From the NCBI GenBank assembly GCA_944358875.1, contig CALVRZ010000001.1:20214-84213 (forward strand): a stretch of DNA of 64,000 nucleotides, read 5' to 3'. Made by a program: the position numbers and the translations under genes. Position 1 is the stretch's first letter. Every line of letters begins with the position of its first letter. The DNA comes from an uncultured Bacilli bacterium (GTDB lineage: Bacteria; Bacillota_I; Bacilli_A; RF39; UBA660). The notes beneath the pieces are model-generated. The model saw only the letters and a program-made list of their open reading frames with translations. It searched no databases and was not told the origin of the DNA. Positions 10,245-58,432 of this stretch are shown here, piece after piece.

Positions 10245-12250
10245 CTCAAATTTGACAGTTGTATAAAGTTAAAAACTCACAAACCCTTTATTTATAAGGG
10301 AATGCGAGTTTTTTTGAATTTAGAAAAATGGCGTACATAATTCTTATTTATTTCATATCTAAAATTTCTTTAATTTTTTTGTAAGTTATTATCTCAGTAT
10401 CAGTATTTATGCCTAAAAAATCATGTAAAGCATCTGTTAAATCATCTCTTGTTTGTATTGGTTCAAATCCTTTTCCATTGTGCTCTAATAATTTCATTTC
10501 TTGTAATTTTGATATTATTTCATTTACAGTATATTTATCATCCAATTGATGTTCTAGATATCTATAGATAAATAATGCTAAGAAGCAAGTAATAAAATGT
10601 CCTTTTATTCTATCTTCGCGTGATAAATGAACTGTCCCAGAATCAAAGTCATCTTTCATAATTCTAAATGATTCTTCAATTTCCCATCTACCATTCATAA
10701 CTTTTATAATTGTTGCAGTATCATCAATTAAATTAGTTGTTATTCCGTATAAACCATTATATTTTTCTTCATTTTTATAAATTTCTTCATCTATGATATA
10801 TTCTATATTACAGGCGATTTCTCCAGCATCGGTTGTTTTAATTTCTTTAATAAATCTTTTAGGATCATTAGGATTTTTACTTATTTTTATTTTTTCAACA
10901 TCTTTTTTCTTTGCTATTTTTTTATTTTTCTTATTAGTTTCTTCAACTAGTTTTCTGGCACGCTCTAATTGATGTAATTTTAAATTGTACTGGTAGACTT
11001 GATATTTAAAAGAAAAAGTTACTATTAAAGTTTGCATTACTGATGCTGTTTCACATTCAATTTCTTTATAAAATATGGTGTTAAAATATTTCTTTTTTAA
11101 TTGTTCGTCTTTTTCAATTTCATCAAGATTATAAACATTCATAAGGTTTCCTAAGATTCGCCATCCTTTTCTATCTAAAGCAAATTCTTGTAATTTATTA
11201 TTTAATTTTTTTATAGATTGAGTAATTACAAAACCACGACCATCTTTGACATTAAATTTTTTAATTTCATCGGTACACATGGCTGCATCAGTACATACAA
11301 TTATGTTACTACCAGCCATGTTATAATTTTTTAAAAACTCTTCCTCAGTAGGAATCATGGTCTTAGTTTCAGAAGTATTTCCAGGATTAATATTCATAGC
11401 AAAAGGATAGCCATCAGCATCCATAAATAATCCCATTTGTACAAGTGGATTAGGTTGATGTTGTTTACTTATTCCATACCTTTGAAAATCATTTTCTTCA
11501 GTGTAGAAAAAATAGTTTGTACAATCATAATAAATAACCTTGTAATTTCTATCGATGACTTTACTACTATTGTCAAATAGTTCTTTTTGAATAGTATTTA
11601 TTTCATGTGATAAATAGGTTAATGTTCTATAAACATGTTGAAGATCAAAGTCATAATTTCCTATAAATTTTCTTGATTGTTCAAATGTTGAAAGTTTAGA
11701 AGAAGGCCATATGATACGAGCATATAGTAAGCATTCAACAACTGCATTTATATCAAATGTAAATTTATATTTATCTTTAATATTTTTACATATTTTATCA
11801 ATACCTAGATCATAATAAATTTTTCTTAAGAAAAAATGTCCAGAATAGAAGCAACGATTTATATTTTTTTCTATTTGTTTATTAGGATTTAAAGTTAAAT
11901 TAACGGGTAATTCTTTTCCATCTTTTATCATCTGATTTAAAGAGTTGATATACTCTTTGACTTTATCCATAGTATTTTCAGTACCAAATCTTTCTTTTAA
12001 GTTTTGGTCATTACCTAAGTTTTCATAAACATAAGTAGATTTTTTTCCATTAAGTTTTTTATAATCAGCAATTATGGCATAGTTATTATTGCTTTTTGTT
12101 GATACAGTTTTGAGTCTCATAAGTGTGGTACCTCCTTACATTATATTAATATTATATCATGTACGGCTTATGTACGCAAGAGTAAAATTAAAAAAAACTA
12201 GGATTTATAAGGCCTAGAACACAATTTTTTATTACAAGTGTCAAAGATGG
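10245..12250 (-). mobile_element. IS1634-family insertion sequence (~2.0 kb) with imperfect terminal inverted repeats (AAATTTGACAGTTGTATAAA / reverse complement ATCTTTGACACTTGTAATAAA)
   Basis: Single long DDE-type transposase ORF. Inverted termini read by eye (~16/21). Immediately bounded by a 62-bp direct repeat. Long variable target duplications are a known property of IS1634. Confidence 0.65.
10348..12120 (-). CDS. IS1634-family transposase
   Basis: N-terminus MRLKTVSTKSNNNYAIIADYKKLNGKKSTYVYENLG follows the IS1634-family pattern (K-x-NG-x-YYxI-x-SY...LG). ~590 aa with DDE-like acidic residues. Confidence 0.6.
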   Translation of the reverse strand: MRLKTVSTKSNNNYAIIADYKKLNGKKSTYVYENLGNDQNLKERFGTENTMDKVKEYINSLNQMIKDGKELPVNLTLNPNKQIEKNINRCFYSGHFFLRKIYYDLGIDKICKNIKDKYKFTFDINAVVECLLYARIIWPSSKLSTFEQSRKFIGNYDFDLQHVYRTLTYLSHEINTIQKELFDNSSKVIDRNYKVIYYDCTNYFFYTEENDFQRYGISKQHQPNPLVQMGLFMDADGYPFAMNINPGNTSETKTMIPTEEEFLKNYNMAGSNIIVCTDAAMCTDEIKKFNVKDGRGFVITQSIKKLNNKLQEFALDRKGWRILGNLMNVYNLDEIEKDEQLKKKYFNTIFYKEIECETASVMQTLIVTFSFKYQVYQYNLKLHQLERARKLVEETNKKNKKIAKKKDVEKIKISKNPNDPKRFIKEIKTTDAGEIACNIEYIIDEEIYKNEEKYNGLYGITTNLIDDTATIIKVMNGRWEIEESFRIMKDDFDSGTVHLSREDRIKGHFITCFLALFIYRYLEHQLDDKYTVNEIISKLQEMKLLEHNGKGFEPIQTRDDLTDALHDFLGINTDTEIITYKKIKEILDMK

Positions 12251-18918: not shown

Positions 18919-18995
18919 GATAATTGTAGAAATTTTTGTTATTATTTGTTATAATATAGTTGAATGTACATAGGAGTGTTAAAGAGGGTGTTAGA

Positions 18996-21533
18996 ATGAA
19001 GAAGATTTATTACTTTTGGGCTTTATTATTATTTGTAATATTTAGTGGTAATGTTAAGGCATTAAATGCAACTGTTGATGTTGATGATGCTTTATATTTA
19101 AGAAAAGAACCTAGTAGTTATTCAGCTAATTTGACAGCGATTCCTGGAGGGACGAAACTAAATGGTGTTGTTATGACCAGTACGAAAGGTAATGGTTGTA
19201 CTGGTAATTGGTATTCGGTTACTTATGGAGGTCAAAGTGGTTATGTATGTGGAGATTATCTACAAATTGATAGTACTAGTAGTAATGATACGGGAAAAGT
19301 TGCTTGTTTTGAAAATGATGATCCTTTAAATATATGGACAGATGTTAATAAATCAGGACGTTTGAAACAACTTAGTTGTGATACCGAACTTAATATTTTA
19401 GAAAGAAATGTGGCAAGTAATAGTCTATGTAGTAATTGGTACAAAGTTGAACATGGTGGAACAGTAGGTTATGCTTGTGGTACTTATATTTATAATGATG
19501 ATGATAATACTGGTGGAAATAATGATACTAATGTAGGTAAGAGTACAACCGGGGATAACATTTATGAGAAAAATAATTATAGTAGCCCTGTCAATGGTGA
19601 TGGAACAGTTGCCTGCTACGAAGATACGGGAGATCTTTCTTTAAGAAGTTCGGCAGGGGGAGCTGCTAATGGATATAAGATTAGTTGTGGTACACCAGTT
19701 AAAATTAATTTTGTAAGAGAAACAAGTGGGACATGTAAATACTACTATAATATTACTAATAAATTAAATAATCAGTCTGGTTATGTATGTGGTTATTATA
19801 TAAATACAACTAAATTATCTAGTACAGCAGAGAATTACTATAAAAATAATGAGGATTTAGATGATTATTATGATAGCTTAAGAGCTAAAGGATTTCCTGA
19901 TAGTTATTTACCTTATTTAGCTGAAATTCATGCAAGACATCCTAATTGGATTTTTAATGCGGAAAAAATTAATTTGGATTTTGACGATGTTGTCTTTTAT
20001 GAATCTTTTGATGGAAGAAGTTTATTACAGGGTAGTGCTTTTGATGTTAATTATTTTTCTATGGATTTGAATACTTATGATATTTTAAATGATAAGTTTT
20101 ATGATTATGATACGGAAAATGGTTGGTATAATGCCTCAACTGAAGCTATTGCTTTTTACTTAGATCCAAGAAATTATTTGAATGAAAAATATATTTTTGC
20201 ATTTGAAAGTTTACTTTATAATGCATCACATGATGAAAGTATGGTATCTAAAATTATGAGTAATATGAACTTCTGGACTGATGTCTATAAAGGTTATTCT
20301 AGTACGATATATGCTGATGTTATTAAAGCTAGTAAAGATGTTGATATTAGTGCTATTCATGTAGCTAGTCGTATTAAACAAGAGATTAGTGGTATTTCTA
20401 CTAGTGATCCTAGATTAGGGGGAGTGTTTACTTATAATAATAAGAAATATTCTGGATATTATAATTTTTTTAACATTAATGTTTATGGTGATAATAAAAT
20501 CGTAAATGGTATGGTATATGCAATGAATAATGATTGGGATACTCCATATAAAGCTGTTCTTGGTGGTAGTAGTTTTATCAGAGGCAATTATATTGGAGTT
20601 AATCAAGATACAGTTTATTATGAAAAATTTGATGTTTCTACTACTGATGGTCATTATACGCATCAATATCAACAGAATTTAGCTGTAGCAATGCAAGAGA
20701 CTAATTCAACATTTAATAGTTATGTTAGCTTAGATAATTATTTTGATCAGAATCTTGTCTTTACTATTCCTGTCTACAATAATATGAGTACATATGCTGT
20801 TACTTCTCCTAGTTTAGGTAATCCTAATAATTATTTAAAGGATTTGAAAGTTAATGGTACGACTGTGAGTGGTTTTAGTTACAGTGATTATGAGTATGAT
20901 ATTACATTACCAGCAGGAACAAAGAGTATTAATGTTACTGCGACAAAGATTAATAATAATGCTAGTATAAGTGGCGATGGCAATATTACTATTGATAGTG
21001 ATAAGAAAACAGTTAATATTGTGGTAACAGCGCAAAATGGTCGAACAAGAACTTATACTTTAAATATTACAAGAACACAGGCTAGTGAAGATGAGATTAT
21101 CGATATTGATGTTATTATGAATAATACAGGAATAAAATATAATGGTGATTATATTTATGGTATTTATGAGAGTACTAATATTAATAGTTTGATTAATAAT
21201 GTTGAGAAGATTAGTGAGTTTGCTAGTGCCAGTATTAAAGATAAAGATGGTAATGCTAAGAATAATGGTATCTTTAAAACAGGTGATGTAGTTACTATTA
21301 GTAATTCTAAAGAAAGTGCTAGTTATACAGTTGTTATCTATGGCGATGCTAATGGAGATGGTGCGATTGAAAGCTTAGATTATTTAGCAATACTTCGTCA
21401 TATGTATAATTATGATAGATTAGAGGGAGTATATGCAAGTGCTGCGGATGCTAATCATGATGGTGATATTAATGAGCTTGATTATTTGGCTGTTTTAAGA
21501 GATTACTATGGCTATGCTAAAATTGTTCAGTAA
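18996..21533 (+). CDS. Secreted multidomain surface protein: signal peptide, three SH3b repeats, central putative cell-wall glycoside-hydrolase-like domain, cadherin-like beta-sandwich domain, C-terminal type I dockerin
   Basis: NWY(S/K)V...GYVCG SH3b motifs three times. Cadherin-like LKDLKVNG...YDITLP...TYTLNITR. Dockerin GDANGDGAIESLDYLAILRH...ADANHDGDINELDYLAVLRDYY. Start moved to the MKKIYYFWALLLF signal peptide with RBS AGAGGG. Confidence 0.6.
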   Translation: MKKIYYFWALLLFVIFSGNVKALNATVDVDDALYLRKEPSSYSANLTAIPGGTKLNGVVMTSTKGNGCTGNWYSVTYGGQSGYVCGDYLQIDSTSSNDTGKVACFENDDPLNIWTDVNKSGRLKQLSCDTELNILERNVASNSLCSNWYKVEHGGTVGYACGTYIYNDDDNTGGNNDTNVGKSTTGDNIYEKNNYSSPVNGDGTVACYEDTGDLSLRSSAGGAANGYKISCGTPVKINFVRETSGTCKYYYNITNKLNNQSGYVCGYYINTTKLSSTAENYYKNNEDLDDYYDSLRAKGFPDSYLPYLAEIHARHPNWIFNAEKINLDFDDVVFYESFDGRSLLQGSAFDVNYFSMDLNTYDILNDKFYDYDTENGWYNASTEAIAFYLDPRNYLNEKYIFAFESLLYNASHDESMVSKIMSNMNFWTDVYKGYSSTIYADVIKASKDVDISAIHVASRIKQEISGISTSDPRLGGVFTYNNKKYSGYYNFFNINVYGDNKIVNGMVYAMNNDWDTPYKAVLGGSSFIRGNYIGVNQDTVYYEKFDVSTTDGHYTHQYQQNLAVAMQETNSTFNSYVSLDNYFDQNLVFTIPVYNNMSTYAVTSPSLGNPNNYLKDLKVNGTTVSGFSYSDYEYDITLPAGTKSINVTATKINNNASISGDGNITIDSDKKTVNIVVTAQNGRTRTYTLNITRTQASEDEIIDIDVIMNNTGIKYNGDYIYGIYESTNINSLINNVEKISEFASASIKDKDGNAKNNGIFKTGDVVTISNSKESASYTVVIYGDANGDGAIESLDYLAILRHMYNYDRLEGVYASAADANHDGDINELDYLAVLRDYYGYAKIVQ

Positions 21534-48654: not shown

Positions 48655-49374
48655 ATGGATGATAAAATTATAGAATTGAAAGAGATTATTGCTAATAGTA
48701 ATAATATTGTTGTTATGACGGGAGCAGGTGTGTCAACACTATCTGGAATTCCTGATTTTAGAAGTAAAGATGGTTTATATAATATGAAATATAAGTATGA
48801 TCCTGAAGAAATATTAAGTCATCATTTCTTTATGAATAATACGGAAGAGTTTTATGAATTTTATAGAGATAAGATGAATTCTTTAGATAAATTACCTAAT
48901 ATTCTTCATGAGTATTTGGCTAAATTAGAGGAAATGGGTAAATTAGAGATGATTATTACTCAGAATATTGATGGACTTCATACAAGGGCTGGGAATAAGA
49001 AAGTTATTGAACTTCATGGTAGTATTTTGAATAATTATTGTATGAAATGTCATAAGTATTATGATGCTAATTATGTATTTAATAGTGATGGTATTCCTAA
49101 ATGTTCTTGTGGAGGTATTATTAAGCCCGATGTTGTTTTGTATGAGGAAGCACTTAAAGAAGAAGATATTAATAATACTATTTCTTCACTAAATAAAGCT
49201 GATACATTACTAGTGATTGGAACATCACTAGTAGTATATCCAGCTGCTTCTTTTGTGGGCTATTTTAGAGGAAATAATTTAGTTATTATTAATAATGATA
49301 AAACGAATTATGATAAGATGGCTACTTTGGTTATTAATGATGATATTTTTGAAGTTACGAAAAAACTTATGTAA
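48655..49374 (+). CDS. cobB: NAD-dependent protein deacylase (Sir2 family)
   Basis: GAGVSTLSGIPDFRS, QNIDGLH, Zn ribbon CxxC...CxC. Confidence 0.8.
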   Translation: MDDKIIELKEIIANSNNIVVMTGAGVSTLSGIPDFRSKDGLYNMKYKYDPEEILSHHFFMNNTEEFYEFYRDKMNSLDKLPNILHEYLAKLEEMGKLEMIITQNIDGLHTRAGNKKVIELHGSILNNYCMKCHKYYDANYVFNSDGIPKCSCGGIIKPDVVLYEEALKEEDINNTISSLNKADTLLVIGTSLVVYPAASFVGYFRGNNLVIINNDKTNYDKMATLVINDDIFEVTKKLM

Positions 49375-49424: not shown

Positions 49425-49510
49425 TGCCGGCCTGGCGGAATGGTAGACGCGACAGACTCAAAATCTGTTACTAGCAATAGTGTGAGGGTTCAAGTCCCTT
49501 GGCCGGTACC
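49425..49510 (+). tRNA. tRNA-Leu (anticodon CAA), class II with long variable arm, preceded by an extended -10 promoter
   Basis: Acceptor GCCGGCC/GGCCGGT (G1:U72), anticodon loop CTCAAAA, variable arm ~16 nt. CCA encoded. Terminator hairpin at 49517-49545. Confidence 0.8.
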
Positions 49511-50475: not shown

Positions 50476-50512
50476 TTTTAGAGAAAGTAAAATTAAGCTT
50501 TCTCTTTTTTTA
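50476..50512. terminator. Bidirectional terminator between convergent genes (AGAGAAAG-TAAAATTAA-GCTTTCTCT flanked by T/A runs)
   Basis: 8-bp stem with U-runs on both strands. Confidence 0.55.
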
Positions 50513-51386
50513 ATAATTGTAAAAACTTTTGAGCACTATAACTTAAGGATTTATTTTTTAAATAGATAAGACCAATATGGCGTTCATTTAATTTGGGAAC
50601 GATATTTAATTCGAAAAGTTCACCATTATTTAATTCTTTTGCAATGAAGTCTTTAGTAACTAAACCAATTCCTAAGCCTATTTTGGCAAAATGAGTTACT
50701 AAAGAGTAACTGGCAAGTTCCATTTCAGGAATTAAAGTTATATTATGAGATAGGCAGAAGTTATCTAAAAAATATCTTGTATTGGAACCTTTGGCCATTA
50801 AAATTAAGGGATAGTTATTTAAATTTTCTAAGGGAATTGTTTCTTTTTTTAGATAATCGTAATTAGAATTTGCGACAAAGCAATCTTGTATAGTTTTTAA
50901 ATTCTTTGTTGTAAAATCATTAGGGACTTCATAAGGTAAGTTTAATATTATAAAGTCTATTATACCATTTCGTGCTTTAATTATTAATTCATCAGTAGGA
51001 TTAGTATATATTTTGATTTTGATTTGGGGATATTGTTTATGAAATTCTTCTATGTATGTTAATAAAAATTTTCTTGTTAAAGTATTACTTATGCCAATAT
51101 TTATATATCCATTAGTCATGTTAATCATTTCCATCAAAGATTTTTCAGCATTATCAATTATTTCTATAGCATCAGTTAATTTTGAATATAACATTTTACC
51201 TTCTTTAGTCAAGTAAACACCTGATTTAGTTCGGACAAATAATTTACAATTTAATTGTTCTTCTAAGTTTTTTATTGATTTACTAACACCAGGCTGGCTA
51301 ATCATTAGCTTTTTAGCGGCTTTAGTAATATTTTTTTGTTCGGCGACATTTAAAAAGATTTTATATAATTCTAAGTTAATGTTCAT
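50493..51386 (-). CDS. LysR-family transcriptional regulator
   Basis: N-terminal HTH LELYKIFLNVAEQKNITKAAKKLMISQPGVSKSIKNLEEQL and a C-terminal substrate-binding domain. Divergent from the nucleotide operon. Confidence 0.8.
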   Translation of the reverse strand: MNINLELYKIFLNVAEQKNITKAAKKLMISQPGVSKSIKNLEEQLNCKLFVRTKSGVYLTKEGKMLYSKLTDAIEIIDNAEKSLMEMINMTNGYINIGISNTLTRKFLLTYIEEFHKQYPQIKIKIYTNPTDELIIKARNGIIDFIILNLPYEVPNDFTTKNLKTIQDCFVANSNYDYLKKETIPLENLNNYPLILMAKGSNTRYFLDNFCLSHNITLIPEMELASYSLVTHFAKIGLGIGLVTKDFIAKELNNGELFELNIVPKLNERHIGLIYLKNKSLSYSAQKFLQLLKKEKA

Positions 51387-51498
51387 ACTTCGTTCCTCCT
51401 TATTAATTTATTCATAACTTGTAGTTATGACAAGATAACTAAAAAGTATTTGTATTATAACATGTTTTAATTTATAATACAACTTGAAGGGAGGATAT

Positions 51499-52080
51499 AT
51501 GGTTTTTGCAACAAATAATATAGGCAAAATAAGAGAGTTAAAAGACATTTTTGGAGAAGGAAATATTGTTTCTTTAGATGAAGTGGGAATTAAAATTGAT
51601 GTATTAGAAGATCAAGATAGTTTTTATGGGAATGCATCAAAAAAGGCAAGAGAATTATATGCTTTGATTAATAATCCTGTTATTGCTGATGATTCGGGAT
51701 TATGTATTGATGCACTTGATGGATTTCCAGGTGTTTTAACCCATCGTTTTTTAGGAGAAAATAAAACAGATGAAGAAATTAATAAGGCTATTATAGATAA
51801 ATGTAGAAATATAAAGGATAGAAGAGCAAGAGTAGTATGTTGTTTAGTTTATTATGATGGGGTAAGAGAAGTTGTTGCTCAAGGAGAAATACAAGGTAAG
51901 ATTGTTAAAGAACCCCGGGGAAGAAATGGTTTTGGCTTTGATTCGATCTTTGAACTTGAAAAGGGAAAAACTTTAGCTGAAATAGATGGTACAGTTAAAA
52001 ATTTATGTAGTGCTAGATATTTAGCGGCTAAAGAATTAAAGAAGAAATTAGAAGATATTAAAATCAGAAAGATAAGATAG
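51499..52080 (+). CDS. rdgB: Non-canonical purine NTP pyrophosphatase (RdgB/HAM1 family)
   Basis: MVFATNNIGKIRELKDIF, ADDSGLCIDALDGFPGV, F(G/D)FDSIF motifs. Confidence 0.75.
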   Translation: MVFATNNIGKIRELKDIFGEGNIVSLDEVGIKIDVLEDQDSFYGNASKKARELYALINNPVIADDSGLCIDALDGFPGVLTHRFLGENKTDEEINKAIIDKCRNIKDRRARVVCCLVYYDGVREVVAQGEIQGKIVKEPRGRNGFGFDSIFELEKGKTLAEIDGTVKNLCSARYLAAKELKKKLEDIKIRKIR

Positions 52081-52127
52081 TTATTAATTTGATGATTAAT
52101 AATGATAAAAATGGAAGGAAGTAAAGA

Positions 52128-52715
52128 ATGAATTTTTTAGAAATTGGTGCGACGTTATTTGGTTTATTACAAGGTTACTTAGTAATGATAAATAAAAGAA
52201 GTAATTGGATAGCATATATTATGCAAATGTTATTTATGTTTGCTTTTTCACTTAGTGTACGACTTTATGGCGATGCTATTAATAATTTGTGTTACATTTT
52301 TGTGGGAATGATAGGGTTTATTGTATGGAATAAAAAGGATGAAAGAGATATTAAAGCTTGTTCATTGAAAGAAAGAATAATTTATATATTGATTATGTTG
52401 GTAGCAACGTTTATTTCATTTTTGATATTGAAAGAGACGGATGATCCTTTACCATTAATTGATTCTTTTACTACTGTTTCTTCATTTATAGCTACATATT
52501 ATATGATTGTTAAAAAGATTGATACTTGGGTAATATGGTTTATAAATGATATATTTTATTGTATTACTTATTTGTTACTTCCCGACCAAGCTCTATATTT
52601 ATTTGCACTAAATTTAATATGGACATTTATGGCTATTGGTAGTTTTATTAATTGGAGAAAAATTATGATAAATAATGGAGGTAATGGTGATGAAAAAGGT
52701 TTATTTAGCAGGTAA
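52128..52715 (+). CDS. PnuC-family nucleoside/vitamin-riboside transporter-like membrane protein
   Basis: ~195 aa, 7-8 TM, N-terminal GLLQGYL...KRSNW and GFIVWNKK-like Trp motif typical of PnuC/PnuN. Confidence 0.5.
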   Translation: MNFLEIGATLFGLLQGYLVMINKRSNWIAYIMQMLFMFAFSLSVRLYGDAINNLCYIFVGMIGFIVWNKKDERDIKACSLKERIIYILIMLVATFISFLILKETDDPLPLIDSFTTVSSFIATYYMIVKKIDTWVIWFINDIFYCITYLLLPDQALYLFALNLIWTFMAIGSFINWRKIMINNGGNGDEKGLFSR

Positions 52716-53193
52716 ATTTAATTTAATTAAAAATAATGATTTAAGTTTAAGTGAAAAGTTAGTTAATGATTTTAGAGCTATTTTATTAGGTAATGCACAT
52801 TTGTTAACTTTTGCTCAGGAAAATTTAAGATTAAATGAAAAGTATATTTATGGTGGACCATTTTATTGTGAACAAGCATCAAATGGGGACTATACTTCAA
52901 CCGATTGTAATGTTGTTTTAGAAAATGAATATAAAGCAGTACTTGATTCAGATATTTATGTTGCGGTATTTGGAGAAAAATTTTCTGTTGGTACAATTGT
53001 TGAACTTGATTGGGCTTTGGAGAATAATAAAGAAATTATAATTTTATACCAAGAAGAAGATTCTAATTACACGATTAAATCTGATTATTGGTTTGCTATT
53101 GCTAATGCTTTAAAAAGAAATAATAAAATAAAGTTATATAAATATAAGAATGATGATGAGGTTGTTAAATATTTACAAGAGGTGTTAGAATGA
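52690..53193 (+). CDS. Nucleoside 2-deoxyribosyltransferase-like (Ndt/DNPH1/LOG-fold) protein
   Basis: N-terminal VYLAGKF and catalytic-Glu region VGTIVELDWALENNKEIIIL aligning with Ndt DVGLGMELGYALSQGKYVLL. Start set at the ATG after RBS GGAGG. Confidence 0.5.
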   Translation: MKKVYLAGKFNLIKNNDLSLSEKLVNDFRAILLGNAHLLTFAQENLRLNEKYIYGGPFYCEQASNGDYTSTDCNVVLENEYKAVLDSDIYVAVFGEKFSVGTIVELDWALENNKEIIILYQEEDSNYTIKSDYWFAIANALKRNNKIKLYKYKNDDEVVKYLQEVLE

Positions 53194-54023
53194 TTAAGTA
53201 TAAAGAGTTAGAATTAATTTTTTCTTCATTTAAATGTGATAAGAACTGTCCTTATTGTACGGCAAAAATTACGAAATGGCCAATTAAAGATGATTCTTTA
53301 GATAAACTTCTTGAAAAATTAAATTTTTTGAAGAATAAAAAAATTAGATTTAAATATTTTATAATTTCCGGAAATGGAGAGCCATCTTTAAATAGTTATG
53401 ATAGTTTAAAAATGATTAAAGATGCTACTAATAGGGTAAACTTATTTGATGAGAAAAGGTTGCAGTCAAGTGGTAATATTTTTTATGAAGATGATAAGTT
53501 TGAAATGTTAAAAGATGATTTTATGATTGAAATTACAAGATGTTATTTTGATTCTAAAAAAGATATGGAAATTCTTGGTTATGAAAGAGATTATATTAAT
53601 ACAGATAATTTTAAAAAAGCTAAGATAAGACTTAACTATGTAATGATGAAAAATAAGACTTTTGATGAATATTTAGATGAAATAAAGATGTTTATTGATA
53701 AATATCCTAATATTAAGACAGTTAGTTTAAAGACTTTAAATGTAAATACTTTAAATGATAATATTGATAATAGGTATTCTAAATGGATACTTGAAAATGG
53801 CCTTACGAAGAGTGATTCTGATAAGATAATTGACTATATGGCTAATAAAGCAATATTTAAATGTAAAGATGAGAATTTTTTTGATCGATATGAATGGATT
53901 TACCATGATATTCCTATTACTTTTTATGTAAAAAAATTAGATTATGGTTATTCTAATATTGTTTATTATGGTGGTGAACTAGTTGATTATCATTTGCAAC
54001 CTATTAATTTTGAGGAGATGTGA
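53190..54023 (+). CDS. Small radical SAM enzyme
   Basis: CDKNCPYC (CxxxCxxC) at aa 16-23. SAM-binding ISGNGEP (GGEP-like). Confidence 0.6.
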   Translation: MIKYKELELIFSSFKCDKNCPYCTAKITKWPIKDDSLDKLLEKLNFLKNKKIRFKYFIISGNGEPSLNSYDSLKMIKDATNRVNLFDEKRLQSSGNIFYEDDKFEMLKDDFMIEITRCYFDSKKDMEILGYERDYINTDNFKKAKIRLNYVMMKNKTFDEYLDEIKMFIDKYPNIKTVSLKTLNVNTLNDNIDNRYSKWILENGLTKSDSDKIIDYMANKAIFKCKDENFFDRYEWIYHDIPITFYVKKLDYGYSNIVYYGGELVDYHLQPINFEEM

Positions 54024-54025
54024 TT

Positions 54026-54916
54026 ATGGTTAAGTTAAGATTAGGGAAAATTAATAATGAAGAAAGAAAATTTATACCAACAAAGATGGAATATTTAGAA
54101 AAGTATTTAAATGGAATGGATTGTATCGAAGAGTATATTTTGACGCAAACTTACCTTAATGGTTTTAAATATCGTGAATATAATGATGGAGGCGTTTTTA
54201 AATATACAAGAAATAATAAAATGAGTAAAATTACTGATGTTAAGGAGATTTCTAGTAAGGAATTTTATGATGTTTTAAAGAAAAATGATTATAAATGTGT
54301 TAGAAAAATTAGGAAATATTATATTGATGGTGATTATGAAATTGATGCTGATTATTTTATAGAACCAATTAGGATGGTAATGATTGAAGTATCTTCCACA
54401 AAACCACTAGAGGATTATGTTCCACCAAAGGGCTTTTTAGAAGTTTCTAATACTAAGACTTTTGAGAATTATGGCATTTATAATGGTATGGTTAAAGCCA
54501 ATAGAACAATTATTGAAGGTACTGATGGTGTAGGTAAAACAGAAACAATAAAAAAATTATTAGAAGATGGAATAATATGTCAGGATCGATTGGTTGAGGT
54601 TGTATCTAAAAATATGTTTTTTGATATAGATATGGATATTCGTGCTAAAAGGATAGAGGATTATTTAATTAATAATAACAATGATATAATTATATTGATT
54701 AATAATGATAAAGAAGAATTGGAAAAGCGAATTAGGATGAGAGAGGTTTTATCTGAATATGATTTAGAGGCATTTAGATATAATCAACTTTATTTAGATA
54801 CTTTTAATTATATGAAAGAAAATAAGATGTTACATAATAAAATGTTTTTAGTTGATTGTACGCATTTAACGATTGATGAACAAGTAAGAGAAGTTAAAAA
54901 GATAATCGAAAGATAA
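54026..54916 (+). CDS. Two-domain protein: N-terminal CYTH-like domain (tentative) fused to a P-loop nucleoside/nucleotide kinase (dNK/thymidylate kinase-like)
   Basis: N-terminus NEERKFIP...TQTYL...RIRKYYIDGDYEIDADYFIEP (CYTH-like acidic/basic pattern). IIEGTDGVGKTE Walker A and DR motif. Confidence 0.45.
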   Translation: MVKLRLGKINNEERKFIPTKMEYLEKYLNGMDCIEEYILTQTYLNGFKYREYNDGGVFKYTRNNKMSKITDVKEISSKEFYDVLKKNDYKCVRKIRKYYIDGDYEIDADYFIEPIRMVMIEVSSTKPLEDYVPPKGFLEVSNTKTFENYGIYNGMVKANRTIIEGTDGVGKTETIKKLLEDGIICQDRLVEVVSKNMFFDIDMDIRAKRIEDYLINNNNDIIILINNDKEELEKRIRMREVLSEYDLEAFRYNQLYLDTFNYMKENKMLHNKMFLVDCTHLTIDEQVREVKKIIER

Positions 54917-54940
54917 TAATATTGATAGGAGTTTTTTAAA

Positions 54941-56545
54941 ATGTTTAATATAGGACAAATAAAATATTCAATAATGCATACTATGGCAATTAATATGTTG
55001 GGTGAAAAAAGAAAGGTTGGTAAAACTCTTTTGGAAGAAATGAAGTACCATGATATGGATAAGGTTTTAAATTATATGATTAGTAGTATATTTACGGCAC
55101 ATAGACTACATATAATTAATTCTAACCATCATTTAGAATCATCTACAATAAAACATGATACGGATTTAATAGAAACGGTTTTGGATTGGGAAATAGCTAG
55201 ATATACGAAGAGTGATAAACCTTTAAATGCTTATCAGACTTTAAATAAATATCATTCGGAATATAAAAATGTTATTTTACCTGTTTTAAAAGATTTAAAC
55301 TTAGATAATGATAATACTCAAATGGATAGAGAAATTGTAGAAAAAATAAATAATATTAATTTATCAAATGAAGATATTTTAAATTATGTTATTAGTTATA
55401 TTAATTATTTAAAAGATAATAGGGTAGAAACATATTATGATTTAAAAGAAATAGTTTTAAGAATTTATCAAAGTTTAAGTAAAGAAGAACAATTATATTT
55501 TAAAAGTCATATGGATAGTGATTATTTAAATCCAATTTTGAAGTCGAAAAGAAAACGAAGAATAGGATTATTTACCCATAAAAATGCTGATTATGATGCT
55601 ATTTCAAGTACACTTTCTTTAGCTAGTTATATTAGTTTTTTAACTAATGATGAAGATATAGAAGTTATTCCTGTGATTGAACCGACGATGCTTTTACAAA
55701 AAGTAAAGAATAATTTAAAAGTATATACGGAAGAAGAAGCAAAAGAGATAGATTTTGATGATGTAATTATTTGTGATGTTAATGAGCAAGATAGAGTTTA
55801 TGGACTTGATTTAATTAATAAAGTTGAAGTTAATAGACGCTATATTATTGATCATCATGATAAAAATAGAGTAGAAGTGGAAGCCTTAGGAACTAATAAA
55901 ATGGTTCTTCCTAGTTATTCTTCTACTTGTGAGATAATTACGGAATTGCTTATTTTTGATGGCTTTTCAATTCCTAGGGATATGGCTTACAATTTATATT
56001 GTGGTATGGCAAGTGATACTTCTTTATTTGAAAGAAATGTAACATTAAATACAGAAAAAATGGTAAACTATTTGAAATTAACAGAACAAGAGAAAAAGGA
56101 TATTCAAGATGATATGAATAAAATGACACCAGAACAGGAAAAATTATATGATAGAATTAAAGTAATTGATAGTGGAGAAGATATTAAAATTTATACACTT
56201 TTGGAGCCTATAGAAGCAGGTGATATTACAAAGTATTTAAAACATAAGAAATTTGATCAATTGACAGGTCCTACGAAGGAAAATCCTATAACTTGTTTTA
56301 TAGTAGGATGTGGAAATAATTATTTCTTAAAATTAAAGAAGATTCCTGATTGTGAAATAGATTTGTTAACGATAGCTATTAATTGTAATGGTGGTGGTCA
56401 TGAAAATCGTTGTGCCGGAAGATTTTATGATACTGATTTTCAAACTGTATTTAATAAATTAATAGAAGAATATCGTTCTGTTAAAGCAAAAATGTTAAAT
56501 AATGATGATGGTGAAGAGAAAAAAAGAAAATTGTTTTTACAATAA
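54941..56545 (+). CDS. DHH/DHHA1-family phosphoesterase with an N-terminal His-rich (possibly HD-like) ~200-aa domain
   Basis: DHH motifs FTHKNADYDAISS (I), ICDVNEQD (II), IIDHHDKN (III), DHHA1 GGGHENRCAG. N-terminal HTMAINM, YHDMDK, HRLHIINSNHH. Confidence 0.55.
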   Translation: MFNIGQIKYSIMHTMAINMLGEKRKVGKTLLEEMKYHDMDKVLNYMISSIFTAHRLHIINSNHHLESSTIKHDTDLIETVLDWEIARYTKSDKPLNAYQTLNKYHSEYKNVILPVLKDLNLDNDNTQMDREIVEKINNINLSNEDILNYVISYINYLKDNRVETYYDLKEIVLRIYQSLSKEEQLYFKSHMDSDYLNPILKSKRKRRIGLFTHKNADYDAISSTLSLASYISFLTNDEDIEVIPVIEPTMLLQKVKNNLKVYTEEEAKEIDFDDVIICDVNEQDRVYGLDLINKVEVNRRYIIDHHDKNRVEVEALGTNKMVLPSYSSTCEIITELLIFDGFSIPRDMAYNLYCGMASDTSLFERNVTLNTEKMVNYLKLTEQEKKDIQDDMNKMTPEQEKLYDRIKVIDSGEDIKIYTLLEPIEAGDITKYLKHKKFDQLTGPTKENPITCFIVGCGNNYFLKLKKIPDCEIDLLTIAINCNGGGHENRCAGRFYDTDFQTVFNKLIEEYRSVKAKMLNNDDGEEKKRKLFLQ

Positions 56546-56653
56546 CAATACTTTAAGTTTATTATAAAACAAATCATGATAATAGATTATGATTTGTTTT
56601 TTTGGTAAAATGATAAAGATGTGTTATAATATACTTCCATCTGGGGGGATATT

Positions 56654-57727
56654 ATGGATTTCGTTTTATTAAGTAAAATTGATAACTTAGTATTTGAATT
56701 AAAAGAATTATTCTATTTATACAATGATTTAACGATTAAAGATATAAAAAATTATTTGGATAAGGCCAAGAAATTTTATAGTATTGAAGAAATAGAATGT
56801 GCTGTAAATATTTTATTAGTAGATTATGGAATAATTGTAAGAGATGACTTTTGGGAAAAAGATGCTGTATATCATTATGTTGCTAATAGATATTATCAAG
56901 ATTCTGCTTTTACGCGTCATTATTATTCATTTACAGTAGATAATACTAGTAATAAGAAAATTTTATTAATATCTGATACACATATAGGAAATCCAGAATT
57001 AGAAAATTTTTCAATGTTACATAATATTTATGATTATGCTTTGAAAAAGGGGGTAAATAAATGTTTTCATCTAGGTGATATTTTTTCACGGTTAGATTAT
57101 GATAAATGGGATAGGGAGAAGATTGAAAAACAGTTAGCTTTATTTGGTAGATATTATCCTGATTGTGCTGAAATAGATACTTATTCATTGATTGGTAATC
57201 ATGATGAATATTTTAATGGCTTTTTGACATATGATAAGATGATAAATATACCTATTGAGTATGATTTAAGACAATTATCTAGATATGTAAGTAATTTTTA
57301 TGTAATACCTAGGACGGCTTGGAATATTGATTTTTCAAATGTTAAGATGCATCTTAGTCATAAGTTGTATCTTAATTGGATGATTCGTGATAAAAAGTTA
57401 AATAATTTAGAAGAGATGAAGTATAATAATTTCTTTGATAATATGGATTATAATTTGCTAATATCAGGTCATTTACATCAAGGGTTTATTTATAATTATG
57501 TTTGTAATAAGCAAGACCATCTTTTTTTAGGAGTGCCATCTGCGACTAGATTAAATCAAAATGGAGTAGTTGCATATATTGTTTCTTTAAATTATAATGA
57601 TTTAGGAGAAATTGATTATTTTGATGTTTCATTATTGTTAAGTGATGATAATAATAAAATTTATGAAGGTGAGACAATTAATTGGAATTTTCAAGAAAAA
57701 AATAAAAGTTTAAAAAAGACTTTTTAA
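56654..57727 (+). CDS. Calcineurin-like metallophosphoesterase
   Basis: ISDTHIG, LGDIF, GNHDEYF, SGHLHQG motif series. Confidence 0.6.
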   Translation: MDFVLLSKIDNLVFELKELFYLYNDLTIKDIKNYLDKAKKFYSIEEIECAVNILLVDYGIIVRDDFWEKDAVYHYVANRYYQDSAFTRHYYSFTVDNTSNKKILLISDTHIGNPELENFSMLHNIYDYALKKGVNKCFHLGDIFSRLDYDKWDREKIEKQLALFGRYYPDCAEIDTYSLIGNHDEYFNGFLTYDKMINIPIEYDLRQLSRYVSNFYVIPRTAWNIDFSNVKMHLSHKLYLNWMIRDKKLNNLEEMKYNNFFDNMDYNLLISGHLHQGFIYNYVCNKQDHLFLGVPSATRLNQNGVVAYIVSLNYNDLGEIDYFDVSLLLSDDNNKIYEGETINWNFQEKNKSLKKTF

Positions 57728-57793: not shown

Positions 57794-58198
57794 ATGAATA
57801 GGAAAGGTTTTACTTTAATTGAATTATTGGGTGTTTTAGTTATAATATCTGTTATTATGTTAATTGGGGTTTCTATTATTGGTAATAGTTTAGCTTTGAA
57901 TAAGGAAGAAGCATACAAGATTATGAAAAATAATGTTGCTAATGCTGCTTTAACTTATGTTAAGGAATGTGAAGGAAATTTGATTAATTGTGATAATGAG
58001 TATGAATGGCAAAATGATAATGATGGGGAAGTTGCTATTGTTAGAGCTTATAATTTACTTAATCATGGTTATTTTAGAGGAGATAGTTTACTTAGTCCTA
58101 TAGATAATAGTGATGTAAGTAATTGTATGGTTGTTTATGTTTATAGAGATAGTAATATGGTGTTGTCACCAAGAGTTGATGATAGTGATTGTAATTAA
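57794..58198 (+). CDS. Prepilin-type N-terminal cleavage/methylation-domain protein (short pilin-like, 134 aa), paralog of the N-terminal domain of the 579-aa protein
   Basis: RKGFTLIELLGVLVIISVIMLIGVSI. Shared NHGYFRGD / NRGYFERDD motif with the gene at 7826. Confidence 0.6.
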   Translation: MNRKGFTLIELLGVLVIISVIMLIGVSIIGNSLALNKEEAYKIMKNNVANAALTYVKECEGNLINCDNEYEWQNDNDGEVAIVRAYNLLNHGYFRGDSLLSPIDNSDVSNCMVVYVYRDSNMVLSPRVDDSDCN

Positions 58199-58231: not shown

Positions 58232-58432
58232 TTAATAAAATGGAACTGGTGGGTAAGGATATGGATATGGTGGATAGGGTCTTGGGTAGAAGGCGGGTGC
58301 TAATAAACCTCCGGTTATTCCTCCTAGAATAAAGGGTCCTAGAAAACCACCTCCAATGAACCGATTACCATTATTTATACCAGGTCGTGGACGAGGACGA
58401 AATGATGGGTTCATAGGCCTATTATTATACAT
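58232..58432 (-). CDS. Small Pro/Tyr/Gly-rich protein (66 aa, ...YPRPYPPYPYPYPPVPFY)
   Basis: RBS GAAAGGAG on the minus strand. Composition resembles spore-coat-like or structural low-complexity proteins. Convergent with the pilin-like gene across a hairpin. Confidence 0.35.
   Translation of the reverse strand: MYNNRPMNPSFRPRPRPGINNGNRFIGGGFLGPFILGGITGGLLAPAFYPRPYPPYPYPYPPVPFY

Follow-up and report, generated by a model that had tools for sequence, protein, structure and literature searches.

A Conserved Triad of PnuC-Type, Ndt-Fold and Radical-SAM Genes in Uncultured Gut Bacteria: A Candidate Nucleoside Salvage Cassette

Organization of the Gene Cluster

The subject of this analysis is a cluster of seven genes from an uncultured Bacilli bacterium (RF39, UBA660), three of which, encoding a PnuC-type transporter, a protein with the fold of nucleoside 2-deoxyribosyltransferases (Ndt-like) and a radical S-adenosylmethionine (radical-SAM) enzyme, recur together in other uncultured bacteria. 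The window, as the term is used here, is the whole stretch of 64,000 nucleotides that was analysed (contig CALVRZ010000001.1 of assembly GCA_944358875.1, positions 20,214 to 84,213). It is low in GC (23-33%), its large open reading frames (ORFs) are almost all on the plus strand, and the base composition of the cluster equals that of the flanks. The seven ORFs of the cluster, all on the plus strand, occupy positions 51499-57727.

The first gene encodes an RdgB/Ham1 non-canonical nucleoside triphosphate (NTP) pyrophosphatase (51499-52080; PF01725, E = 1.4e-56; TIGR00042). It is followed by core genes 1 to 3, which encode a PnuC-family nucleoside facilitator (52128-52715; PF04973, E = 1.1e-37; TIGR01528), an Ndt-fold, nucleotide N-glycosidase-like enzyme (52675-53193; recognized by profile search against PDB) and a radical-SAM enzyme (53190-54023; PF04055, 29.8 bits against a cutoff of 29.5). 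Gene 5 (54020-54916) encodes a two-domain protein with the Walker A sequence GTDGVGKT at amino acids 167-174. The last two products are a 534-amino-acid protein (54941-56545), in which a DUF5662 domain (54941-55315) is joined to a DHH/DHHA1 domain (55553-56545), and a calcineurin-like metallophosphoesterase (56654-57727; PF00149, E = 2.3e-9). Profile searches placed five of the seven family assignments made in an earlier note on this DNA at or above curated thresholds (RdgB, PnuC, radical SAM, DHH and Metallophos), and returned sub-threshold matches only for the Ndt-like protein and the kinase encoded by gene 5.

The junctions between the genes are short: 47 nt separate RdgB from PnuC, the PnuC and Ndt-like genes overlap by 26-41 nt depending on the choice of start codon, the Ndt-like and radical-SAM genes overlap by 4 nt, and the radical-SAM and kinase genes either overlap by 4 nt or, if the latter starts at ATG 54026, are 2 nt apart. 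Gaps of 24 nt and 108 nt precede the DHH and metallophosphoesterase genes, respectively. The cluster is divergent from a gene for a LysR-type regulator (50493-51386, minus strand; PF03466, E = 4.2e-35; PF00126, E = 2.3e-20). Coordinates, junction lengths and LysR profile matches thus agree with the earlier description of seven same-strand, tightly joined genes facing a LysR gene.

A GGAGG sequence lies 5 nt upstream of the RdgB start codon, and the divergent LysR/RdgB intergenic region contains a perfect 15-bp palindrome of the T-N11-A type (ATAACTTGTAGTTAT, 51414-51428), which is a candidate LysR operator. No terminator-like site was found between positions 51300 and 58300. The 108-nt gap before the metallophosphoesterase gene holds a promoter-like TTGGTA-17-TATAAT with a TG element (56602-56630); promoter scanning is uninformative in such AT-rich DNA, where 64 sites were found and 60 were expected.

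Conservation of the PnuC/Ndt-Like/Radical-SAM Triad

A scan of 185,579 species, each represented by one genome, with an alignment of the radical-SAM protein returned 61 loci (cited here by L numbers). ORFs were called in all of them and compared to the proteins of the window; a radical-SAM ORF was detectable in 60. In 57 of the 61 loci (57 of 58 evaluable genomes), the PnuC, Ndt-like and radical-SAM genes stand next to each other, with strand and order conserved. Contig ends account for three of the four exceptions, and a single locus, labelled Candidatus Uhrbacteria, is a genuine case without PnuC and Ndt. Compared to the window proteins, median identity is 65% for the radical-SAM enzyme, 56% for PnuC and 59% for the Ndt-like protein, metagenome-assembled genomes (MAGs) labelled as other phyla included. 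The other genes of the cluster are far less constant: the kinase is present in 19 of the 61 loci, RdgB in 15, LysR in 11, the metallophosphoesterase in eight and the DHH domain in five. The conserved unit is the triad, and the remaining genes are lineage-specific accessories. The clustering of the triad is far beyond chance, and weaker for the rest. The earlier view of all seven genes as one functional unit therefore does not hold, since kinase, RdgB, DHH protein and metallophosphoesterase vary by lineage, while the co-occurrence of at least three of the genes in other genomes, proposed as a check at the time, is borne out by the triad.

Fusions among the three core genes occur as well. A PnuC::Ndt fusion of 361-364 amino acids occurs in L001 and a radical-SAM::Ndt fusion of about 450 amino acids in L054-L062; among library representatives, P0243 and P0246 are Ndt::radical-SAM fusions and P0253 is an X::radical-SAM::Ndt fusion. 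The C-terminal extension of another protein, P0279, looks NDK-like by eye and has no Pfam match.

By their labels, the 61 loci belong to uncultured Bacilli, Clostridia, Alphaproteobacteria (including Candidatus Enterousia), Gastranaerophilales, "Tenericutes" and the one Candidatus Uhrbacteria. The sources given in record titles are all animal gut or faeces (chicken, Hadza people, rabbit, sheep, goat, deer and mouse); the Uhrbacteria title gives none. A 416-kb viral contig from IMG/VR carries PnuC, radical-SAM and Ndt genes in that order, and the other cluster genes are not recognizable there. No homologue of the radical-SAM protein was found in INPHARED phages or PLSDB plasmids. Because identity is high across MAGs labelled as different phyla, horizontal transfer of the triad between gut lineages is probable, and its carriers include one megaphage. 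The genome closest to that of the window is L007, whose cluster proteins are 73-94% identical to those described here; at L007 6275-8776 the LysR gene is split by a 421-amino-acid ORF, and RdgB is not in the cluster.

The Ndt-Fold Enzyme and the Transporter

The Ndt-like protein shares the catalytic motif of the Ndt-fold superfamily (x-G-T/S-x-x-E), here S104-V-G-T-I-V-E110, in which E110 and G106 are invariant and S104 is nearly invariant among 22 orthologues. Its start is probably ATG 52690 (MKKVY...). A profile built from 22 sequences matched the cytidine monophosphate (CMP) N-glycosidase BcmB of C. botulinum in PDB (4jen, E = 5.6e-9), followed by MilB (4jem, E = 3.3e-5) and BlsM (5vto, E = 1.3e-4), whereas true nucleoside deoxyribosyltransferases (NDTs) reached E-values of 0.017-0.7 only. 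The motif FSVGTIVELDWA aligns with SPGTHVEIGWA of MilB. Six residues before the nucleophile Glu110 stands a Ser, as in nucleotide-specific members of the superfamily, where NDTs have Asp; we take the Ser to contact the phosphate and the Asp of NDTs to bind the 5'-OH. The protein is therefore a putative nucleoside monophosphate (NMP) N-glycosidase, possibly a transglycosidase: since BcmB, MilB and BlsM score better than NDTs and Ser replaces Asp, the enzyme more likely hydrolyses a 5'-monophosphate than exchanges the base of a deoxynucleoside. Of the original designation, the Ndt fold and the catalytic Glu stand, while deoxyribosyltransferase activity gives way to a closer relation to BcmB, MilB and BlsM.

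The transporter is a member of the Pnu family: it carries WVIWFIND at amino acids 134-141, which matches the WxxW(x)3D motif, scores 70.3 bits against the nicotinamide riboside (NR) transporter equivalog TIGR01528 (cutoff 42.45) and matches PDB entry 4qtn (E = 6e-11). Together with PF04973, these matches confirm the assignment as a PnuC-type transporter. The WxxW(x)3D/N motif in transmembrane helix 6 defines the Pnu family (PnuC, PnuT and PnuX) and is thus common to the thiamine transporter PnuT as well (PMC5749112), so the sequence does not decide the substrate.

A salvage route for deoxynucleosides, in which a PnuN-type transporter, an NDT and a kinase of the deoxynucleoside kinase (dNK) type act together, RdgB removes dITP or dXTP and the radical-SAM enzyme is auxiliary, appears improbable to us. 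Deoxynucleoside transport is predicted for some members of the Pnu family, RdgB is in the cluster, and there are weak Pfam and PHROG matches to Nuc_deoxyrib_tr and thymidylate kinase; for the Ndt-like protein, these are phrog_1817 (E = 3.8e-6) and Nuc_deoxyrib_tr (E = 0.013), with 16.1 bits against PF05014 where the cutoff is 28.8. However, the Ndt-like protein fits ribonucleotide N-glycosidases far better and has Ser at the position of the Asp presumed to bind the 5'-OH, such a route offers no role for the invariant radical-SAM enzyme, and kinase and RdgB are missing from most loci.

A Detached Family of Radical-SAM Enzymes

The assignment of core gene 3 as a small radical-SAM enzyme stands, with PF04055 just at its cutoff and the superfamily motifs CX3CX2C (amino acids 16-23) and GNGEP (61-65) in place. 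Beyond this single CX3CX2C, the family conserves no Cys, which makes a second cluster or methyl transfer dependent on Cys unlikely. Many basic residues are conserved. All of the 313 close homologues come from uncultured material, the best 120 being 66-99% identical, and when 1.84 billion representatives were searched exhaustively with HMMER, 106 proteins of the family were returned at E <= 0.001. By these searches, the family appears small and detached from all other radical-SAM families. The resources searched hold no named or solved member: the source names of the listed homologues of the radical-SAM and DUF5662 proteins are "hypothetical protein" or generic, e.g., "organic radical activating enzyme", a plain sequence search of PDB was uninformative, and a BFVD search gave generic phage radical-SAM proteins only. 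The fold is MoaA/viperin-like; fold similarity does not discriminate here, as MoaA and GDGT-MAS are at least as close as viperin.

Known enzymes that were considered as identities for the protein were ruled out. There is no specific sequence or fold similarity to QueL or QueE, and viperin/pVip is excluded by the absence of a PADLOC match and of any specific structural closeness. In ten family members that were scanned, no viperin domain was found.

Two distant members of the family are fused to cytidylate kinase (PF02224, E = 7e-15 and 2e-9). In both contigs (L067 951-3785 and L068 2-2614) the fusion gene is followed by a gene for a metallo-beta-lactamase (MBL) phosphodiesterase resembling Apyc1, and in L068 a LysR-type substrate-binding domain is encoded upstream. 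In L067, the phosphodiesterase is followed by a 188-amino-acid protein that looks CYTH-like by eye; no tool confirmed this, and a plain sequence search against PDB was uninformative. Other distant members form tandem pairs of radical-SAM paralogues, without PnuC or Ndt, at L053 3688-5530, L070 6001-7900 and L072 678-2599. A DUF5662 gene comes after the pair in L070, a contig of mostly unannotated genes that we suspect to be phage; in L053, a protein that is Maf-like by eye lies near the pair. The cytidylate-kinase fusions, the phosphodiesterase that follows them and the tandem paralogues, once with DUF5662, argue for a phosphorylated nucleotide as the substrate of the radical-SAM enzyme and for a recurrent need for a phosphoesterase.

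Gene 5 and Other Accessory Genes

Gene 5 was previously described as a fusion of a CYTH-like domain to a kinase resembling dNK or thymidylate kinase (TMK), a claim that holds in part: the Walker A P-loop is present, the dNK/TMK match is weak, and CYTH, which rested on a motif, was not confirmed. The N-terminal domain of about 155 amino acids is unassigned. Its sole match is that of amino acids 15-156 to phrog_6660 (function unknown; E = 1.4e-8), and its motif reads N-x-E-x-K (N13, E15, K17), compared to the EXEXK of CYTH proteins. None of 16 orthologues has a Pfam match to CYTH, and a sequence search of PDB gave no match either; hhalign comparisons of the gene-5 alignment to E. coli YgiF and to the 188-amino-acid protein of L067 were negative, at the poor sensitivity that the low diversity of the alignment allows. 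The C-terminal half is P-loop kinase-like and matches phrog_761 (thymidylate kinase; E = 7.6e-5) and, weakly, AAA_18 (10 of 16 members, best E = 0.0012) and Thymidylate_kin (6 of 16, best 0.017). Compared with NadR by hhalign, the kinase gave a probability of 15%, which is not significant. The 19 loci with a kinase gene have it directly after the radical-SAM gene (Bacilli/Clostridia-type). In L020 (10190-11863), the gene-5 orthologue is C-terminally fused to an NrtR-like winged-helix regulator, forming a protein of 557 amino acids reminiscent of the enzyme-regulator NadR.

RdgB scores 150.3 bits against TIGR00042 (cutoff 145.35) and matches PF01725 over its full length, which upholds its identification as an NTP pyrophosphatase; its position in the cluster varies among the 15 loci that have it. 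The assignments of the DHH and metallophosphoesterase genes are likewise supported by Pfam matches and motifs. In the former, the DHH domain (PF01368, E = 4.2e-15) is NrnA-like, matching the NrnA model at 3.7e-12, below its cutoff, with the DHH motif at amino acids 304-306 and GGGH at 484-487. The latter scores 38.4 bits against PF00149 (cutoff 21.5), contains the calcineurin-like motifs DTH, GD, GNHD and GHLH at positions 108, 141, 181 and 272, and has an extra N-terminal region of about 95 amino acids.

The His-rich N-terminal part of the DHH protein, noted earlier as an extra domain, can now be identified as DUF5662, a minimal, all-helical version of the HD-superfamily fold with the ligand set H13, H37-D38, H57, H63-H64 and D82. 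A single 140-amino-acid query in a word-indexed search found two homologues of this domain, and an alignment query 1237; a plain sequence search against PDB was uninformative. DUF5662 is a standalone gene beside the triad in 25 loci. At L078 5001-6478, a standalone DUF5662 gene is paired with one for a Metallophos protein, with DUF927 and superinfection-immunity genes in the same region; similarity of this phosphoesterase to that of the window is not detectable, though the pairing echoes the DUF5662-DHH and metallophosphoesterase genes of the window.

With these phosphoesterases, a viperin-like antiviral or signalling module could be envisaged, as suggested previously: the kinase would supply an NTP, the radical-SAM enzyme would turn it into a modified nucleotide that terminates chains or serves as a signal, and the HD, DHH and metallophosphoesterase proteins would control its level. 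Known cyclic-dinucleotide phosphodiesterases fall into two families, HD and DHH, the cytidylate kinase::radical-SAM fusions mirror the link between viperin and CMPK2, and the Apyc1-like phosphodiesterase is the next gene in those loci. Yet a search of PADLOC-DB 2.0 found no defence system: six of the seven proteins had no match at E <= 0.1, and the kinase alone had weak ones (best 0.0018). The fold of viperin is, as said, no closer than others, transporter and N-glycosidase, the obligate partners, are not effectors, the regulators (LysR, NrtR-like) are of the metabolite type, the flanks are housekeeping genes and not a defence island, and the family is strongly conserved, with 60-70% identity across phyla. 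There is also no sequence-level relation to viperin or pVip with their adjacent nucleotide kinase, where the linkage is to defence. We therefore consider this module, which fares poorly on PADLOC, partners and regulators alike, to have little chance of being correct.

Regulators and Partner Genes in Other Lineages

In 11 related loci (L007, L009 and L054-L062), a LysR gene is found no more than 8 kb from the radical-SAM gene. At least 15 loci have a winged-helix regulator of the NrtR type (PF21906, E = 3e-15) adjoining the triad; it is often preceded by a member of an unnamed family (f9/f10) of 166-290 amino acids with invariant H7, D34, H43, H73 and D77, for which no Pfam or NCBIfam match was found. 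Members of this family stand beside the triad or the NrtR-like gene at L001 5057-5557, L054 6174-7040 and in 11 further loci; a copy at L062 1153-1710 adjoins a second, unrelated radical-SAM gene (1842-2687).

In operons of the Alphaproteobacteria/Gastranaerophilales type, the gene order is NMNAT-like, CofE-like, DUF5662, PnuC, Ndt-like, radical-SAM and OprB porin. The NMNAT-like protein (RCQPFHIGH), which is in the operon in 24 loci, has an archaeal NMNAT (1f9a, E = 2e-6) as its best PDB match and matches NF002243 at 7e-14, below the cutoff. The CofE/F420-ligase-like partner matches PF01996 (E = 1.5e-48); a plain sequence search against PDB was uninformative. L043, labelled Lachnospiraceae, has this same layout, OprB porin included, and the taxonomic label of that bin is therefore doubtful.

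Three independent NAD-type partners, a PnuC above the NR cutoff, the NrtR-like regulators and the NMNAT-like enzyme, speak for a pyridine nucleoside or for an end product that is an NAD-like dinucleotide, and the CofE-like ligase is among the partners that point to a pyridine (NAD-like) nucleoside. The relatives of the N-glycosidase and the cytidylate-kinase fusions argue instead for a nucleotide of the cytidine-type pyrimidine kind. In its plainest form, the former idea is ordinary salvage of NR to NAD: PnuC would import NR, the kinase would make nicotinamide mononucleotide (NMN) and NMNAT would make NAD under NrtR-like control, with the Ndt-like and radical-SAM proteins serving NMN/NR turnover, base exchange or the conversion of a non-standard pyridine nucleoside. 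It would account for the PnuC score, for the NrtR-type regulators, one of them fused to the kinase, and for the nearness of the RCQPFHIGH protein to archaeal NMNATs. In the window, a gene for a Sir2/CobB NAD-dependent protein deacylase (48655-49374, plus strand; NF001752, E = 1.6e-97), followed by a tRNA gene (49426-49508), stands some 2 kb upstream of the cluster and would fit as well, though this link to NAD may be coincidental. What the scheme leaves unexplained are its invariant members: we know of no NAD route in which either a radical-SAM enzyme or an NMP N-glycosidase is required. Moreover, the NMNAT-like and NrtR-like proteins are far below family cutoffs, the N-glycosidase is nearest to CMP hydrolases, distant radical-SAM relatives are fused to cytidylate kinase, and a riboswitch search in the window region and eight loci found tRNAs only, with no NAD riboswitch among them. 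On this evidence, we regard plain NR salvage as rather unlikely.

The triad also resembles queuosine salvage in C. difficile, in which the transporter QueT, the nucleosidase QueK and the radical-SAM queuine lyase QueL act on a salvaged gut micronutrient (bioRxiv 10.1101/2023.12.05.570228). A non-orthologous analogue of that pathway, importing a 7-deazapurine nucleoside, releasing its base and trimming it by radical chemistry, would share the three-part logic of transporter, glycosidase and radical-SAM enzyme, and the distribution of the triad is gut-restricted. RdgB acts on non-canonical purine NTPs, and the phage copy could, speculatively, serve 7-deazaguanine DNA modification. Against such an analogue, no locus has a tgt or queA motif within 10 kb, and there is no preQ1 riboswitch in the regions named above; the partners are NAD-like and not queuosine-like, and there is no homology to the queuosine salvage set. 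It seems to us very unlikely.

Other Features of the Window

Elsewhere in the window, one of the few large minus-strand genes encodes a DDE transposase (10348-12120; PF01609, E = 1.4e-13). On the plus strand are genes for a pilin-like protein with the N-terminal methylation motif PF07963 (7826-9565) and for an 857-amino-acid surface protein with SH3_3, cadherin-like and type I dockerin domains (18960-21533). Directly downstream of the cluster, a plus-strand gene (57794-58198) encodes a protein that, judged by eye from its FTLIELL N-terminus, is pilin-like. A 66-amino-acid ORF rich in Pro, Gly and Tyr (PYPPYPYPYPPVPFY; 58232-58432, minus strand) could encode a small protein, secreted or of low complexity, or not be a gene.

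A Possible Pathway for the Cassette

Taken together, the locus can be read as a cassette that imports a ribonucleoside of the animal gut, traps it, remodels it by radical chemistry and removes its sugar, a reading that we put forward tentatively and hold at slightly less than even confidence. It builds on the broader suggestion of nucleoside uptake, phosphorylation, glycosidic-bond chemistry and radical-SAM modification in the earlier note, which is still the best reading. In such a pathway, the PnuC-family protein would admit the nucleoside by facilitated diffusion, as can be extrapolated from PnuC and PnuT, and the P-loop kinase of gene 5 would trap it as a 5'-nucleotide; in lineages and phage without gene 5, other kinases might do so. 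Metabolic trapping would probably drive the uptake, for which PnuC/NadR and PnuT provide a precedent (PMC5749112). The radical-SAM enzyme would then perform a 5'-deoxyadenosyl-radical transformation on the nucleotide; that its substrate is a nucleotide is proposed because of the MoaA/viperin-like fold, the conserved basic residues and the cytidylate-kinase fusions. Finally, the Ndt-fold enzyme would cut the N-glycosidic bond of the 5'-monophosphate, yielding a base and ribose 5-phosphate. From guilt by association and the fusions, we infer that glycosidase and radical-SAM enzyme act on the same metabolite, delivered by the Pnu facilitator. The order of kinase, radical-SAM enzyme and N-glycosidase is suggested by analogy, since MilA/MilB and BcmA/BcmB modify an NMP and then release the base.

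RdgB, which converts NTPs to NMPs and pyrophosphate, the DUF5662(HD)-DHH protein and the metallophosphoesterase might be interchangeable helpers that turn tri- or diphosphates or phosphodiesters into the monophosphate, or clear off-pathway nucleotides. Expression would be controlled by LysR here and by the NrtR-like regulator elsewhere.

Several observations weigh against the cassette as drawn. The order of the radical-SAM and glycosidase steps is not fixed, fusions occurring in both orientations, and PnuC, as a facilitator, could in principle export. The kinase is missing from Alphaproteobacteria-type and phage clusters, and DUF5662 is also found away from the triad. The members of the radical-SAM family are without known activity or substrate; the fold match of the enzyme does not separate viperin, MoaA and others, and the fusions to cytidylate kinase come from a remote branch without PnuC and Ndt, whose substrates may differ. 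No riboswitch in the searched regions names a ligand, and the taxonomic labels of MAGs, on which the cross-phylum spread is read, may be unreliable.

A further step would be to see the triad as a new, radical-SAM-dependent salvage route from an imported gut ribonucleoside to an essential base or cofactor precursor, for example a novel way into the metabolism of NAD-type pyridine nucleotides or related dinucleotides that NMNAT-like and CofE-like enzymes would complete in some lineages; we give this view a substantial chance, though one well below even.

Relation to Known Systems and Significance

Searches of the literature for PnuC with radical SAM, for DUF5662 and for PnuC with radical SAM and deoxyribosyltransferase found no description, and the claim that the combination is undescribed thus holds for the literature searched. 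The parts belong to known superfamilies, and their logic resembles that of Pnu-centred and queuosine salvage systems. Phage NARP3 pairs a PnuC-like with a NadR-like protein (PMC13464706). The cassette shares with PnuC-NadR a Pnu facilitator and trapping by a cytoplasmic P-loop kinase, carriage by phage, and a fusion of regulator and enzyme (NadR there, the kinase::NrtR-like protein of L020 here), and has NMNAT-like and NrtR-like partners. It differs in its invariant N-glycosidase-like and radical-SAM proteins, which have no role in the conversion of NR to NAD, and in that kinase and adenylyltransferase are optional here and homology to NadR is not detectable. The principle of modifying CMP and then releasing the base is known from MilA/MilB, BlsM and BcmA/BcmB of mildiomycin, blasticidin S and bacimethrin biosynthesis. 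In contrast to those pathways, there is no thymidylate-synthase-like hydroxymethylase, CGA synthase or antibiotic gene here, a transporter is coupled instead, and in place of actinomycetes or C. botulinum the hosts are gut bacteria with reduced genomes.

The identity across phyla and the presence of the triad on a 416-kb viral contig suggest that its function is self-contained and strongly selected. If the triad is a salvage pathway, it would define a reaction for a radical-SAM family without a characterized member, and would provide the first functional context for DUF5662 and for the unnamed f9/f10 family. The links to kinase, phosphodiesterase and cytidylate kinase make the enzyme a candidate for new radical chemistry on nucleotides, alongside viperin, MoaA and QueL. 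For its hosts, it would mean a nutrient dependency common, if the MAG labels are followed, to gut lineages that are hard to culture (Bacilli, Clostridia, Alphaproteobacteria and Gastranaerophilales), which might aid their cultivation as well as models of cross-feeding. If the new salvage route considered above is real, the triad would represent a new pathway for a vitamin-like nucleoside, passed horizontally between gut bacteria with reduced genomes from several phyla and taken up by a megaphage.

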